A stretch of DNA of 30,477 nt from Bacteroidales bacterium (lineage in GTDB: Bacteria; Bacteroidota; Bacteroidia; Bacteroidales; JAADJA01). Made by a program: the position numbers and the translations under genes. Below, piece by piece: positions 17,150 to 27,555 of the stretch (position 1 is the stretch's first letter; each line of letters starts with the position of its first letter). The stretch lies in NCBI GenBank assembly GCA_029933495.1, contig JAOZOC010000002.1, positions 1-30,477 on the forward strand, in the 5' to 3' direction. Below the pieces are notes generated by a model. The model did not search any database and was not told the DNA's origin. It saw only the letters and a list, made by a program, of their open reading frames with translations.

Positions 17150-20080
17150 ATGAAAAATACAAATACTCTTATAACACTTGCTATCACAACACTTTTTTTA
17201 ACAACAGCAATATCATTCGGCCAACAATACGACCGGATAAAAGGTTTTTCCATTCAAAAAGCAAAGGTAAGCTTTAAAAGTATGCAGGAATTTGACAAAC
17301 TTCAGCCCCCAAAATCACCTAAGAAGAAAAGGCCCAATAAAGAAAGAATATTTCCCGAATTTGCTTCTGATAAAAAGCAAATCCTCTATATGGATAAATC
17401 CGATGTCACTTCACAAACTCAGTACAAAGGTATCGCTGAGGACTCTCCCCTCCCCGACCTTGACTTTTTAGGGCTTGGTGACAATAACAACTCCATACCA
17501 CCCGATGTGAATGGTGCAGCAGGCCCAAATCACCTTATGGTCACTCTTAACACGGGGTTCAGGATTATGGATAAACAGGGAAGTGTTATTTCCGACATCG
17601 GTAGTGGCAGTTTCTGGTTTCCAATGATCGGTAGTGGCGACACTTTCGACCCAAAAATAAAGTACGACCCATACGAACATCGATGGATTATTGTTATGCC
17701 AAGTAGTTCGAATATTAACAGTTCGCAACTTTTTGTCGCTGTGAGCGAAAACAGCGATCCAACAGGAAACTGGTTTATGTATTCATTCGATGCTGATCCG
17801 GCTGATCAGTATTGGTTCGATTATCCAAATTACGGATTTAATAAAAAATGGATAACCATTTCAGGCAATATGTTTGGAGCAGGCTTTGGATACAGCGTCC
17901 TTTTTGTTTTAAACAAAGCTGATCTTTATAATAATGAACCTGAGGCTGGATATTCCAGATTTGCTATTTATGACGGATTTACAATTGTCCCGGCAGAAAC
18001 CTTCGATGAAGAATTAGAGGATATGTATATGATTTCAAATGCTGGCGGTAATAGTAATGGTAGTGGATATCTTAACCTTTGGAAAGTTAGTGGAGAGATT
18101 GGAAATGAAATAGTTGACAATATGGGGCTTATTGGAATACCGGAACCATGGTCGAACTGGGCTGGGAATTATGGCAATCTTGCACCACAATTGGGAAGTG
18201 AACAGCGAATTAATTCAGGAGACGGAAGAATCCAGAATACTGTTTACAGAAACGGAAAACTCTGGTGTGCTCATCATATATTCCTGCCGGCAGATAATCC
18301 CGATCATTCGGCCATTCAGTGGTGGGAGCTGGCAACTGATGGCGCTATTTTACAACGAGGAAGGATAGAAGATACCACAGGCTTTTTTCATTTTACATTC
18401 CCTACTATTGCAGTTAACTCAAAAGAGGATATAATGATTGGCTATGGTAGTTTTTCTTTGGAACAATACGCTTCAAGCAGTTATTCCTTTAGATTTGCAG
18501 ATGACCCGCCAAATACATTACGCAACCGTTACCAGTTTAGAGAAGGTGTGGCTCCATATTACAAAACTTACGGCGGCGACAGAAACAGATGGGGAGATTA
18601 TACAGCGACCTGTATTGACCCCTCTGATGATCTTGATTTCTGGACTTTGCAGGAGTATGCCGAACTTCCGGCTGGCGGATACGACAGTTGGGGAACCTGG
18701 TGGGCTTATATAAATCTAGATGCAATCCCGGCTCCCGGTTTTGAGGCAAATATCACGACTGTCCCGACAGGAAGCGGAGTTAACTTCACAGACCTGACAA
18801 AATATGACCCTGAATCCTGGCTATGGATATTTGAGGAAGGAACACCATCAACTTCAACAGAGCAGAATCCTCAGAACATTGTTTATGAAAATTCGGGAAG
18901 TTACAATGTCACCCTGATAGCAACAAACTATCTCGGCTCGGACACCCTGATAATTGAAAACTATATCAGTGCAAATACTACCATCCTGCCGGAAGTTAAA
19001 TTTGCAGTTAACTACACTATACCACGAACAACAGATACCGTTATATTCAATGATTTCTCTGTTTACAATCCCATTGGATGGCAATGGGAATTTGAGCCTG
19101 ATAATGTCAGTTTCGTAAATGGCACGAGCCAGGCATCACAAAACCCTGAAGTTATCTTCACAGCACCAGGAATATACTCTGTAACTCTTACAGCTACAAA
19201 CTTAAATGGCAGTAATTCGCTCCAAAAGGAAAAGTTAGTTTATTCAGGAGGCCTGCCAATGCCTTTCTATGAAGATTTTGAGACAAAATCGTTAGAATCG
19301 AAATCATGGATGATAAACAACCCTGATAATGATAAAACCTGGGAGCTTTCACACTCGGAAGGAACTTCTCCTGGTGACAAGGCTGCAAACATTGAATTCA
19401 GGTATTATGGAAACTTCGGTGAGCGCGATGAGCTTGTCTCACCATTAATAAACCTTACAACTTTTCAGTCTGCTTTCCTGGAATTTGAATACTCCTATGC
19501 TCAGCGGACAGCTCAATATACAGACTCATTAATAGTTTACATATCCGATGATTATCCCGTTTCTAAAACCAGAATACTGGTACTCGGACAGGATACCACA
19601 GAAAATTTTGCGACTGTTCCCCCGGTTATGTCAGAGTTTGTTCCTTCTTCAGCCAGCGACTGGTGTGGTGTAGATAACCTTGTAGAATGCAAAACCGTTG
19701 ATCTTTCTGAATGGTCGGGCAAGCCGGATATCAGAATTATATTTGAATCTTATAACGGATTTGGCAATAATCTTTTCATTGATAATGTTTCGGTTGCGAG
19801 TCCGGAGGCTGTTGATGAAGGATTTTTGGGGTCATCTTACGTTTCGATATTTCCAAACCCTGCAACAGGTAAATTCACCATTGATATCAGAAATGAAGCA
19901 TCCGTGAATAATATCAAAGTAATAAATCTCACGGGGCAGTCGGTTTACAATAAAGACATCACCAATACCGCTTCAACGAATAGTTTTGAGATTGACCTGA
20001 GTAACCAGCCAAAGGGCATTTATCTTGTAAAGGTTACAGGAGAGGGCGTTGTGATGGTTGGAAAGGTGGTTTTGAGGTAA
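17150..20080 (+). CDS. T9SS type-A cargo: signal peptide, uncharacterised approximately 430-aa domain, two PKD domains, adhesin/MAM-like domain, C-terminal sorting domain
   Basis: PKD patterns (VNFTDL....W.W.F..GTP.TS..QNP...Y..SG.YNVTL.ATN; VIF.D.S...W.W.F...NP.V.F...G.YSVTLTATN). EDFE...W....LVSPLINL...L.FEYSY. CTD IFPNPA.G.FTI...GIYLVKV....KVVLR. Confidence 0.88.
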   Translation: MKNTNTLITLAITTLFLTTAISFGQQYDRIKGFSIQKAKVSFKSMQEFDKLQPPKSPKKKRPNKERIFPEFASDKKQILYMDKSDVTSQTQYKGIAEDSPLPDLDFLGLGDNNNSIPPDVNGAAGPNHLMVTLNTGFRIMDKQGSVISDIGSGSFWFPMIGSGDTFDPKIKYDPYEHRWIIVMPSSSNINSSQLFVAVSENSDPTGNWFMYSFDADPADQYWFDYPNYGFNKKWITISGNMFGAGFGYSVLFVLNKADLYNNEPEAGYSRFAIYDGFTIVPAETFDEELEDMYMISNAGGNSNGSGYLNLWKVSGEIGNEIVDNMGLIGIPEPWSNWAGNYGNLAPQLGSEQRINSGDGRIQNTVYRNGKLWCAHHIFLPADNPDHSAIQWWELATDGAILQRGRIEDTTGFFHFTFPTIAVNSKEDIMIGYGSFSLEQYASSSYSFRFADDPPNTLRNRYQFREGVAPYYKTYGGDRNRWGDYTATCIDPSDDLDFWTLQEYAELPAGGYDSWGTWWAYINLDAIPAPGFEANITTVPTGSGVNFTDLTKYDPESWLWIFEEGTPSTSTEQNPQNIVYENSGSYNVTLIATNYLGSDTLIIENYISANTTILPEVKFAVNYTIPRTTDTVIFNDFSVYNPIGWQWEFEPDNVSFVNGTSQASQNPEVIFTAPGIYSVTLTATNLNGSNSLQKEKLVYSGGLPMPFYEDFETKSLESKSWMINNPDNDKTWELSHSEGTSPGDKAANIEFRYYGNFGERDELVSPLINLTTFQSAFLEFEYSYAQRTAQYTDSLIVYISDDYPVSKTRILVLGQDTTENFATVPPVMSEFVPSSASDWCGVDNLVECKTVDLSEWSGKPDIRIIFESYNGFGNNLFIDNVSVASPEAVDEGFLGSSYVSIFPNPATGKFTIDIRNEASVNNIKVINLTGQSVYNKDITNTASTNSFEIDLSNQPKGIYLVKVTGEGVVMVGKVVLR

Positions 20081-20103
20081 AGAGAAGCCAGTAACAAAAT
20101 AAA

Positions 20104-20190
20104 TTTGTATATTCAAAAAATGATTGGATAAACAGGCAAAGAATTACTCCATTTTATCAAAATATAATTCAAGAAGGTATAATGATATGA
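20104..20190 (+). pseudogene. 3' remnant of a minimal nucleotidyltransferase (MNT) antitoxin gene
   Basis: Not in track. Translates FVYSKNDWINRQRITPFYQNIIQEGIMI*, the typical MNT C-terminus (..W...TPFY.NI..EGI). In-frame TAA at 20092-20094 and no start codon. Confidence 0.7.
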
Positions 20191-20234
20191 ATATTGAAGA
20201 AAGAAACGAGTATATAAAATACAGAATAGAAACA
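20187..20234 (+). pseudogene. 5' remnant of a HEPN-domain toxin gene
   Basis: ATG overlaps the MNT TGA (ATGA). Translates MNIEERNEYIKYRIET, a typical HEPN (UPF0332-like) N-terminus. Homology ends at the stop codon of the convergent nuclease gene. Confidence 0.65.
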
Positions 20235-21071
20235 CTAATTTCCAACAAGCTCCCTTACTTCTGTAATTGCCTTATTGATTCTTCGCTCTGAGACATTGAT
20301 ATCTCTCAGGATATTAGGACTCAGATTACGGCAGAGTACAATACCCATATCAAGAATTTGTTGTTTCTCTGCTTTTTTCAAACTTTGCAAAGCAGTTACC
20401 GGATGCAGTCCGGAAGCATCTATCCTGTCGCGCAGGCTACCTTTACGCGGATAATCCCACGACATAAGCTGTAAGCCGGCACATCTTCCAAAATTAATAG
20501 CATCTTGTGTAAATCTTGTATTCGTCACAACCCAACCCTGATAAAAATCAATTTCATCTCCGTATTCCTTTTCCCATTGACTTTTAACATCATAAAAACG
20601 GGAACTTATATACATAGGCACCTTCACATCGCTTTTTCGGCTTGTGTCGCTATGAAACTTGCATTCCATCATCAACTGCTTTTTACCTTTCCTTGCTATC
20701 ACATCCACTTCGTGCGTAACACACTTGCCCGGTACGACAACGCCAACCTGTACATCATATCCCTGATGTTTGAAAAGTTCACCAACAAACTTCTCAAAAG
20801 GAAAACCTGTAGGACCAAGTTCAAGGATAGCTTTTTTAAGACGATACCTGCCTGCCACCTTGTTTGATCGCTTTCTTAGTAATGAATATGCAATTTGATA
20901 AAGCTTCCGTGTTGACATTCCATCAACGATCTTCTCTCTAACCTGACCGATAATATATTCAATATCTTCTGTCCCGGCACCTGATCGTTCAAGTGATTGC
21001 TTCAGTTTAGAAGAATCGAAGACTACCCTCTCACCTGACTTTTTTACAATTTCAATGTTTTCATTAACCAT
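20235..21071 (-). CDS. ATP-cone domain fused to an Mrr-like PD-(D/E)XK endonuclease domain
   Basis: N-terminal IVKKSGERVVFDSSKL..SL.RSG (ATP cone). GFPFEKFVGELF...GY, EVDVIA...MECKFH (PD-ExK), GWVVTNTRFT.DA. Likely start ATG 21071; the track start at 21077 is TTG. Confidence 0.85.
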   Translation of the reverse strand: MVNENIEIVKKSGERVVFDSSKLKQSLERSGAGTEDIEYIIGQVREKIVDGMSTRKLYQIAYSLLRKRSNKVAGRYRLKKAILELGPTGFPFEKFVGELFKHQGYDVQVGVVVPGKCVTHEVDVIARKGKKQLMMECKFHSDTSRKSDVKVPMYISSRFYDVKSQWEKEYGDEIDFYQGWVVTNTRFTQDAINFGRCAGLQLMSWDYPRKGSLRDRIDASGLHPVTALQSLKKAEKQQILDMGIVLCRNLSPNILRDINVSERRINKAITEVRELVGN

Positions 21072-21173
21072 TATCAAACTTTTTTTCAGATTGTAAAAAT
21101 AGGCAAAATACTGTTACTTCAACCGCTACAACGAACTTTTGGCGCATAACAAATTTCCATTAATTTATATTTC

Positions 21174-21187
21174 GTCCCTAACGGGAC
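21174..21187. repeat. REP-like hairpin GTCCC-TAAC-GGGAC
   Basis: Perfect 5-bp GC-rich stem with a 4-nt loop in an intergenic region. Confidence 0.65.
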
Positions 21188-21201
21188 TTTTTCCCGGATC
21201 C

Positions 21202-21248
21202 AACCTTTCAAGACTCATGCGCACTAACCTGCTTCGACTTGAAAGGTT
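21202..21248. repeat. Perfect 11-bp inverted repeat AACCTTTCAAG-N25-CTTGAAAGGTT
   Basis: Arms at 21202-21212 and 21238-21248. On the minus strand the loop can form a further GCA/UGC stem. Confidence 0.85.
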
Positions 21249-21304
21249 TACTTCTTAACCTTAAACAAAACCGCATTTGTCACAAAAAAGCAAAACCAAA
21301 TTCA

Positions 21305-21347
21305 CACAAATCATTTGTGAAACCTTTGTGACTTAGAGCCTTAGTGG
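21305..21347. repeat. CACAAAT-C-ATTTGTG palindrome followed by an 8-nt periodic CTTTGTGA/CTTAGAGC/CTTAGTGG tract
   Basis: Read directly from sequence (21305-21319 and 21324-21347). Confidence 0.7.
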
Positions 21348-21511
21348 CTTTTTTATTTCAAGCTACAAGGAAAAAAGTATAAAATAAGGGCATATTTTCT
21401 TTTAAACATACAAAGCCGATATGCATCGGGCAATATTTCTTAACAATACTGTTATACGTTAGGAGTTAAAAGTTCTCTGTAGAGATGAAAGAATAGTACA
21501 AACCATCACCG

Positions 21512-21531
21512 CATAACGCATAACTTTTAAC
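21512..21531. repeat. Copy of the CATAACGCATAACTTTTAAC motif also found twice at 27191-27233
   Basis: 19-nt exact match CGCATAACGCATAACTTTT between 21510-21528 and 27211-27229. Confidence 0.85.
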
Positions 21532-21601
21532 AATATCACGATGCTATTTTTAACAAAATTCAACACAAACAGCATATTGGTTAATTTTGCCAAATAAGCG
21601 C

Positions 21602-22993
21602 CTAACTCCTGACAATATCCCTGATATCATCAATTATCTTATTTGCGAGATGTATAGCCGTTGTTTCCGATTCACTTTCCGAATAGATTCGGATTATGGG
21701 TTCAGTGTTGGATTTGCGAAGATGCACCCACTCATTTTCAAAATCAATTTTGACTCCGTCTATTGTATTGACATTATGATTTTTATATTTTTCGGCCATC
21801 TGCTTTAAAATATCATCAACATCCATTCCGGGTGAAAGCTCAATTTTATTCTTTGAGATAAAATATGAAGGATAGGTTGCTCTCAGGGCAGAGCATGAAA
21901 TACCTTTTTTAGCAAGATTTGTCAGAAAAAGTGCTATCCCTACAAGGGAATCACGTCCGTAATGCAGTTCGGGATAAATAACGCCGCCGTTACCTTCACC
22001 ACCGATAACGGCATTCACGGCCTTCATCTTTTCAACAACATTAACTTCCCCAACCGCTGATGCAAAGTACTCACCTCCTGCTTTTTCAGTAACATCTCTT
22101 AAAGCCCTGGTTGAAGACAGGTTTGAGACGGTATTTCCCTTTTGATTTTGCAAAACCCAATCACTCACAGCTACCAAAGTATATTCCTCTCCAAACATTT
22201 CTCCATCTTCTGAAATGATAGCCAGCCTGTCAACGTCAGGATCAACAACAAATCCAACATCGGAATTTGTTTTCTTTACAACCTCTGATATTTCACCAAG
22301 ATTTTCAGGCAATGGTTCGGGATTATGCGGAAATTTGCCGGTAGGTTCTGTATATAATTCCTCAACTTTCTTAACTCCCAAAGCTTTTAACAGAGGTGGC
22401 AACGCAATACCACCTGTAGAATTAACACAATCGATGGCAACCTTAAATCCGGCTTTCTTGATTGCAGCCACATCAACAAGTGGCAATTCCAGAATTTTTC
22501 GAATATGCTTTTCAATAAATGAATCATCAGTTCTATATGTACCAAGCTTTTTAACATCCGAATAGAAAAAATCGCCACTTTCAATAATTTCAAGAAGTTC
22601 CACACCATCAGCAGCCGAAAGAAACTCGCCCTTTTTATTCAGTAACTTAAGGGCATTCCAGTTCTCCGGATTATGACTTGCAGTAAGTATAATCCCACCA
22701 TCCGCATTTTCTTCTGTAACAGCCATTTCAACAGTTGGTGTAGTTGAAAGTCCGACATCCACAACATCTGCCCCCATTCCGAGTAATGTTCCGGTAACCA
22801 GCCGGTTAACCATTTCTCCTGATATCCGGGCATCCCTCCCGATAACAATTTTTATTTTATCCGCACCAACACTTTTTCTAATGAAGGTAGCAAAAGCAGT
22901 GGCAAATTTCACAATGTCAACAGGAGACAACACATCACCAGGTTTCCCACCAATTGTACCACGTATTCCAGAAATTGATTTTATTAACGTCAT
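21602..22993 (-). CDS. glmM: Phosphoglucosamine mutase
   Basis: SISGIRG, GRDAR.SG, TTPT, phosphoserine loop TASHNP, DPDVDRL, GGEGNGG, RKSNTEPIIRIY.E. Confidence 0.93.
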   Translation of the reverse strand: MTLIKSISGIRGTIGGKPGDVLSPVDIVKFATAFATFIRKSVGADKIKIVIGRDARISGEMVNRLVTGTLLGMGADVVDVGLSTTPTVEMAVTEENADGGIILTASHNPENWNALKLLNKKGEFLSAADGVELLEIIESGDFFYSDVKKLGTYRTDDSFIEKHIRKILELPLVDVAAIKKAGFKVAIDCVNSTGGIALPPLLKALGVKKVEELYTEPTGKFPHNPEPLPENLGEISEVVKKTNSDVGFVVDPDVDRLAIISEDGEMFGEEYTLVAVSDWVLQNQKGNTVSNLSSTRALRDVTEKAGGEYFASAVGEVNVVEKMKAVNAVIGGEGNGGVIYPELHYGRDSLVGIALFLTNLAKKGISCSALRATYPSYFISKNKIELSPGMDVDDILKQMAEKYKNHNVNTIDGVKIDFENEWVHLRKSNTEPIIRIYSESESETTAIHLANKIIDDIRDIVRS

Positions 22994-27190: not shown

Positions 27191-27240
27191 CATAACGCAT
27201 AACTCTTTAACGCATAACGCATAACTTTTTAACACATAAC
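27191..27240. repeat. Tandem 21-bp repeats built from CATAAC(G/A) heptamers in the 5' leader
   Basis: CATAACGCATAACTCTTTAAC (27191-27211) and CATAACGCATAACTTTTTAAC (27213-27233), plus ACATAAC. Confidence 0.9.
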
Positions 27241-27243
27241 ACT

Positions 27244-27555
27244 ATGTCCATTTTACTTGAATTTGCAATGTTCCCCACCGACAAAGGGGAAAGCGTAAGC
27301 AGCTACGTAAGCAGAATAATAAAAATGATAAGAGAAAGCGGAGTATCATATCAACTTACGCCTATGGGAACTATAATTGAGACTGAAACAGTGCAGGAAG
27401 CTCTTAATATCGTCATGAAATCATACGAACAACTGGAACCCGACTGCGACAGGATATATTCGGGACTGACCTTTGACATCCGTAAAGGTGAAGGTGGCCG
27501 GATATCTAAAAAGATTAAATCCATTGAATCAAAAATCGGAGAGGTTAATAAATAA
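27244..27555 (+). CDS. MTH1187/YkoF-like thiamine-binding protein family
   Basis: LEFAMFP......SVS.YV...I..I..SG..YQLTPMGTIIE.......L...........R.Y......R. Confidence 0.85.
   Translation: MSILLEFAMFPTDKGESVSSYVSRIIKMIRESGVSYQLTPMGTIIETETVQEALNIVMKSYEQLEPDCDRIYSGLTFDIRKGEGGRISKKIKSIESKIGEVNK

Follow-up and report, generated by a model that had tools for sequence, protein, structure and literature searches.

The window (the whole stretch of DNA analysed, 30,477 nucleotides) is the entire 30.5-kb contig C11 of genome G000, a fragmented MAG (820 contigs, 82% completeness, 4.8% contamination). Two convergent genes, encoding a T9SS cargo protein and a nuclease, are separated in it by 154 bp between their stop codons. 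The region is organized as follows.

17150-20080, plus strand: intact gene of a secreted 976-aa protein (the cargo, left neighbour) with PKD domains and a T9SS C-terminal sorting domain; stop codon at 20078-20080.
20081-20103, no strand: 23-bp spacer between the cargo stop codon and the remnant; a TAA at 20092-20094 lies in frame before the MNT piece.
20104-20190, plus strand: pseudogene piece of a minimal nucleotidyltransferase (MNT) gene, consisting of the final 28 codons and TGA, with no start codon (tblastn 3.3e-11, 71%; HMMER E 3.6e-9; aligned with 18 intact MNTs).
20187-20234, plus strand: HEPN pseudogene piece, consisting of the first 16 codons from the ATG, with a 4-bp ATGA overlap with the MNT stop codon (14/16 identical to the G014 HEPN).
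20187-20291, plus strand: residual 34-codon open frame, made of the 16 HEPN codons and 18 codons running antisense over the nuclease 3' end; stop codon at 20289-20291.
20235-21077, minus strand: intact gene of a 280-aa nuclease (right neighbour) with ATP-cone, Mrr-type (PD-(D/E)XK) and AF1548-like C-terminal domains (Pfam ATP-cone, Mrr_cat and AF1548-like_C).
21078-21601, no strand: 524-bp spacer between the nuclease gene and the PGM-family gene, built of dispersed repeats.
21602-22993, minus strand: phosphoglucosamine/phosphoglucomutase/phosphomannomutase-family (PGM) gene (Pfam PGM_PMM I-IV), which is linked to the nuclease gene also in G020 and G043.

The cargo protein matched the Pfam families PKD (2.8e-16) and Por_Secre_tail (6.7e-15, over residues 900-974), and its orthologues in G007, G020 and G043 were 80-85% identical. 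The C-terminus of the nuclease was normal in length, neither clipped nor extended, when compared with 10 homologues. In window coordinates, the nuclease stop codon starts at base 20235, and CTA at 20235-20237 is its TAG on the minus strand, as the initial annotation had claimed for the convergent ATP-cone nuclease; it was seen as such in the 280-aa minus-strand ORF.

Plus-strand translation of 20104-20190 gave FVYSKNDWINRQRITPFYQNIIQEGIMI, followed by the TGA stop codon. The ATG at 20187 overlaps this stop codon (ATGA, 20187-20190) and opens the HEPN piece, MNIEERNEYIKYRIET. When 20081-20240 was compared by blastn with 41 related genomes, matches appeared in 12 genomes besides G000. Among the congeners, matches running across the MNT/HEPN junction were obtained in G018 (E 1.6e-20), in G021 and G001 (~3e-13), and also in G035 and G029. 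The match site in G021 contains an intact 105-aa MNT gene ending ...FVYSKNDWHSKQRITPFYHNVIEEGIRL, which overlaps by 4 bp an intact 132-aa HEPN gene starting (V)KQDERQEYIKYRIAS. Pfam assigned the two genes to NTP_transf_2 (3.1e-12) and HEPN PF05168 (3.3e-12). With the G021 MNT as the query, HMMER retrieved the MNT piece of the window at the E value given above (per genome), in an alignment to residues 70-104 of the 105-aa protein. The MNT tail was identical at 20 of 28 residues to G021 and at 21 of 28 to other Bacteroidales copies.

The HEPN head was aligned with 20 intact congener HEPNs as well. An intact 134-aa HEPN of G014 begins MNIEERNTYIKFRIET and is identical to the head at 14 of its 16 residues, while the next-best match to five intact HEPN heads, among ~61,000 16-residue segments from a six-frame translation of the contig, reached 8/16. 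The order of MNT followed by HEPN with a 4-bp overlap was found in the intact pairs of G021, G001, G014, G008, G029 and others, and an ATGA or GTGA overlap, as in the window, was present at loci L005, L041, L008, L007, L004 and L042. As judged from these alignments, the match of the remnant to MNT-HEPN is far above chance. The initial annotation had described the gap as about 28 MNT codons joined by ATGA to 16 HEPN codons, and the translation and the homologue alignments agreed with it to the base. The homology search that it called for likewise matched MNT C-termini and HEPN N-termini in adjacent full-length pairs that share the order and the 4-bp overlap of the remnant.

To place the limits of the remnant, we used a scan of one genome per species. 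It yielded 73 loci with the HEPN family of the remnant, 49 of which aligned to the remnant as DNA. The best alignment (78.6%) covered exactly 20104-20234. At these 49 independent loci, all from other genomes, the alignments started at 20103 or 20104 and ended at 20222-20234, with one reaching 20238. The homology may therefore start at 20103, giving 131 (or 132) bases, and its right edge meets the nuclease stop codon, within alignment resolution. Thus, the module was confirmed to be cut at either end and to adjoin the nuclease stop codon, the alignments being confined to the remnant except for the one that reached 20238. On the other side, the homology of the G020 and G007 cargo loci to the window ended at 20075-20081.

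We also considered whether G000 holds a second copy of the remnant. The only other DNA match in this genome (C615, 78% over 50 bp; L002 1343-2059, minus strand) falls within an ORF that resembles a type I restriction S subunit (...KIEERKQKIKDRIAK...) and was rejected as a chance A-rich similarity. At the protein level, G000 contained only two other MNT matches, C696 (paired with a HEPN) and C572, and both were distant.

The MNT-HEPN family was present in 16 of 28 congeners, at 0-7 copies per genome. Intact relatives of the remnant consist of an MNT of ~105 aa and a HEPN of ~132 aa. For the copies closest to the remnant, the surrounding genes change from genome to genome, being pgk/cvpA in G021 and G001 and different ones in the others. 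MNT-HEPN modules have been described as mobile, predicted TA-like two-gene units (Makarova, Wolf and Koonin 2009, PMC2701414), and the multi-copy, non-syntenic distribution fits a mobile cassette of this kind. The 131 bp are very probably the dead remnant of one copy of such a cassette (NTP_transf_2 plus HEPN PF05168).

Decay was also seen in other copies of the subfamily. In G018 (contig C36; L004, ~1584-1605) the MNT gene is whole and the HEPN gene is cut after 6 codons. In G020 (C28; L028, 5400-5600) the MNT gene is again whole, with the HEPN head fused to the HEPN tail by an internal deletion, and in G035 (C114; L007, 1585-1983) a whole MNT gene is followed by a HEPN gene with an in-frame stop codon. 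Four further copies gave only fragmentary HEPN matches, as search results alone. Loss of HEPN first, with retention of MNT, appears to be recurrent in the subfamily. This pattern fits HEPN being the harmful partner, for which it is indirect support. The window copy is simply a further step of decay, in which both genes are gone except for their inner junction.

Conserved in all 20 intact congener HEPNs (L005:1584-1979, L041:418-819 and 18 others) were the block NRLYY and the motif R-x2-GDY, in which tyrosine takes the place of the histidine of the canonical Rx4-6H RNase motif. The subfamily therefore combines HEPN-first loss, which fits a harmful HEPN, with the absence of the canonical catalytic histidine. 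This HEPN subfamily is widespread in Bacteroidota, where its role as a toxin is predicted.

We compared the remnant and its intact relatives with known systems. The relatives resemble COG1708/COG2250-type modules in that they are small, have MNT before HEPN with a stop/start overlap, are patchy, multi-copy and non-syntenic, and contain both Pfam families. On this basis, the remnant derives from a PF01909 plus PF05168 (COG1708/COG2250-type) pair, although, unlike such modules, the window retains only 44 of ~237 codons and no catalytic part. The HEPN motif of the genus also departs from that type in lacking the histidine of Rx4-6H, and the TA activity of the subtype is a prediction. In the type VII HepT/MntA system, MntA AMPylates the HepT RNase (PMC7641770, PMC11586414). 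The family shares with this system the pairing of a nucleotidyltransferase gene with a HEPN-fold gene, and the decayed HEPN beside an intact MNT in several congeners is the pattern expected if HEPN is harmful. However, the intact MNT of L005 scored 35.2 bits against the NCBIfam equivalog NF047752, below its cut-off of 60 for MntA. Unlike HepT, the HEPN partner matched only PF05168 in Pfam and lacks the catalytic His. NCBIfam, which would include any HepT model, returned no family at E 0.001 for the intact HEPN partner. These scores place the family of the remnant, by sequence, outside the experimentally characterized type VII HepT/MntA systems. Thus, the identification of the gap as an MNT-HEPN toxin-antitoxin module held for the MNT-HEPN homology; the type is PF05168/COG2250 rather than HepT/MntA, and "toxin" and "antitoxin" are predictions for this subfamily.

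We then examined the locus in related genomes. The nuclease gene was found in 13 of the 28 congeners searched, at 57-86% identity, and adjoins the PGM gene only in G000, G020 (86% identical) and G043 (85%). The sequence following the cargo gene was as follows.

G000 (the window): the 23-bp spacer, the 131-bp remnant and the nuclease stop codon.
G043 (contig C178): the cargo stop codon TAG, 20 bp and the CTA of the nuclease gene; MNT/HEPN sequence is absent.
G020: an unrelated lipoprotein gene and housekeeping genes; the contig carrying the nuclease gene ends 2 codons before the nuclease stop codon.
G007: ~460 bp, followed by a transporter gene.
G014, G018 and G042 (the more distant congeners inspected): a cargo paralogue.

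The 20-bp spacer of G043 and the 23-bp spacer of the window have only GAAG...GTAA in common, which is very short. Because G043 has the same convergent genes without the remnant, the remnant is dispensable. In the near-complete genome G014, the cargo and PGM genes are ~480 kb apart. The gene after PGM showed at least eight different arrangements across the genus, and gene order was poorly conserved in general. The cargo-nuclease junction is thus a synteny breakpoint, in a genus that conserves little of its gene order. The comparison of the locus that had been proposed with the initial annotation therefore gave a variable junction, with an empty 20-bp gap in G043 and other neighbours in G020 and G007. 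Its description as a variable defence or TA slot held in the weak sense that the neighbours differ; nothing specific marked it as a defence slot, given the poor gene order throughout the genus. An intact cassette at the exact site of the window was found in no relative, so the ancestral state had to be inferred. A metagenome scan with the nuclease protein returned three distant relatives only (44-47% identity) and no closer version of the locus.

Several contigs of the related MAGs break inside the nuclease gene or its repeat spacer, or right at their borders, namely the ends of G020:C98 (L027 6058-6891), G016:C137 (L026 4680-4836), and G043:C216 and C178. These breaks in three MAGs hint at strain heterogeneity or repeats at the junctions.

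The fragmentation and the contamination of G000, together with such breaks in related MAGs (G020:C98 stops 2 codons before the nuclease stop codon), are what would be expected if the assembler had inserted a piece of a genuine MNT-HEPN locus between two unrelated contig ends. This origin would require two mis-joins 131 bp apart, which is less than one short read, so k-mers over both junctions must exist in the reads. In addition, G000 has no intact copy of the subfamily that could have served as the donor, and the convergent cargo-nuclease neighbourhood was confirmed by the independent assembly G043. On these indirect grounds an assembly chimera is very unlikely, and we treat the remnant of the cassette as a genuine part of the genome.

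The remnant of a mobile cassette may have formed as follows. The cassette would once have occupied the small interval where the cargo and nuclease genes converge, and deletion or illegitimate recombination would then have eroded it from both sides, with its outer limits set by selection on both flanking genes. The right edge may lie at the nuclease stop codon because selection removed deletions or breakpoints that cut into either neighbour. Its exact fit to the base would then reflect selection plus a coincidence of modest size; the coincidence is only modest because the empty gap, as seen in G043, is just 20 bp.

Two orders of events are compatible with this scheme, and we consider them about equally likely. 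In the first, the cargo and nuclease genes would already have been convergent, as in G043, and the cassette would have landed in the gap and been trimmed on both sides. In the second, the cassette would have stood after the cargo gene until an incoming nuclease-PGM block broke HEPN at codon 16, with the leftover later lost in G043.

The second order can be stated as a specific sequence of events within the remnant reading, and is compatible with it: an intact MNT-HEPN module followed the cargo gene until a single rearrangement introduced the nuclease-PGM block, severing HEPN exactly at the nuclease stop codon, and G043 later deleted what was left. We give this version somewhat less than an even chance. 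It agrees with the homology edge at 20234 in many alignments, directly before the nuclease stop codon at 20235, and with the patchy distribution of the nuclease gene (13/28 genomes), which lies at other loci elsewhere. The distance of ~480 kb between cargo and PGM in G014 also indicates that their juxtaposition is derived. Against it, 20 bp separate cargo from nuclease in G043, the most distant member of the close group, and nothing of the cassette is seen there; the cassette follows the cargo or the nuclease gene in no congener; and the far side of the nuclease gene lacks the C-terminal part of HEPN. This last point also bears on insertion of the nuclease gene into the HEPN gene, which was rejected: tblastn with an intact HEPN found no C-terminal part in 18581-22577 of the window, and the far side of the nuclease gene is dispersed-repeat spacer rather than a HEPN tail. 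The proposal that the nuclease gene had replaced, or come to abut, the module thus stands for abutment, since the stop codon touches the remnant, but not for replacement, given the G043 junction without a remnant and the absence of a HEPN tail beyond the nuclease gene.

The base-exact edge could also be explained if the cargo-nuclease gap were a preferred landing and excision point for small cassettes, with exchange edges at stop codons. This idea draws on that edge, on the variety of genes adjoining the site in the four closest genomes, on contig breaks located at identical points in two other MAGs and on the repeat-built spacer beyond the nuclease gene. If true, it would mean recombination aimed at gene ends instead of random deletion trimmed by selection; we think it highly improbable.

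The remnant resembles gene-fragment scars such as orphan antitoxins and truncated TA genes in its two-sided truncation, the retained inner operon junction, the intact flanks, the location at a synteny breakpoint and the empty version in a relative. The sole unusual detail, when compared with such scars, is the right edge, which coincides to the base with the stop codon of a neighbour. It is of an already known kind, an ordinary scar of a mobile cassette, and the locus is one more example of small TA-type cassettes that come, go and leave fragments at synteny breakpoints.

The state of the two pieces bears on function. From the MNT gene, ~77 N-terminal codons are gone, including the nucleotidyltransferase motif (GSxxRGD...SDWD). 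From the HEPN gene, ~116 of ~132 codons are gone, comprising everything after helix 1, with the conserved R-x2-GDY region among the losses. Only the relatives had complete frames that carry the MNT catalytic motif and the HEPN core. Since both catalytic cores and the MNT start codon have been lost, neither product can be made in working form. The two pieces alone had no match in a Pfam scan, being too short. In line with the initial annotation, which saw no terminator between the genes, no terminator-like site was found in 20081-20234. Rfam gave no match in the window, and the gap folded as RNA no better than shuffled sequences on either strand (z 0.02, -0.61). Because the catalytic cores and the MNT start are missing and there is neither a terminator nor an RNA fold beyond chance, we read the remnant as a non-functional pseudogene and ordinary genomic debris. 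The 44 retained codons are free of stops and frameshifts and keep residues conserved in the family, which is compatible with a recent event but leaves slight room for some constraint.

Under an alternative reading, the remnant would have been co-opted, so that the 34-codon frame, or an antisense transcript running from the AT-rich remnant into the nuclease 3' end, modulates the nuclease. The ATG and the open frame do persist, and a sigma-70-like match lies at 20154-20183, just upstream of the HEPN ATG. Promoter-like matches, however, numbered 7, with 6.1 expected from shuffles, and the scanned consensus is not of the Bacteroidota type. The 18 added codons are simply the nuclease gene read on its opposite strand, the chimeric frame showed no homologue, and the nuclease is retained in G043 without the remnant. 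Co-option is therefore very doubtful. As a non-functional pseudogene, the remnant means that the "empty" 154-bp gap merits annotation as an MNT/HEPN pseudogene remnant and has little significance otherwise.

Some further observations concern the surroundings and the wider family. In PADLOC the nuclease had only weak matches, in which its nuclease domain resembled ZorD and a CARF-PD-(D/E)XK protein, and none of the neighbouring genes inspected was identified as a methyltransferase gene. Between nuclease and PGM, G043 and G020 have only ~40-90 bp where the window has its 524-bp spacer. Within this spacer, a repeat unit of ~55 bp (~21194-21251) was found on at least eight other G000 contigs, and a unit of ~160-190 bp (~21413-21600) also occurs on C778, C23 and C245, with a partial copy at 27211-27254 of the window. 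G016 has the PGM-proximal 115 bp of the spacer in common with the window, and its contig ends there. Bacteroidota-type HEPN copies with 64-77% identity were also found on contigs binned as Promethearchaeia archaeon and Chlorobiota (L121, JAWOCD010000043.1; L088; L101), reflecting either horizontal transfer or binning contamination.
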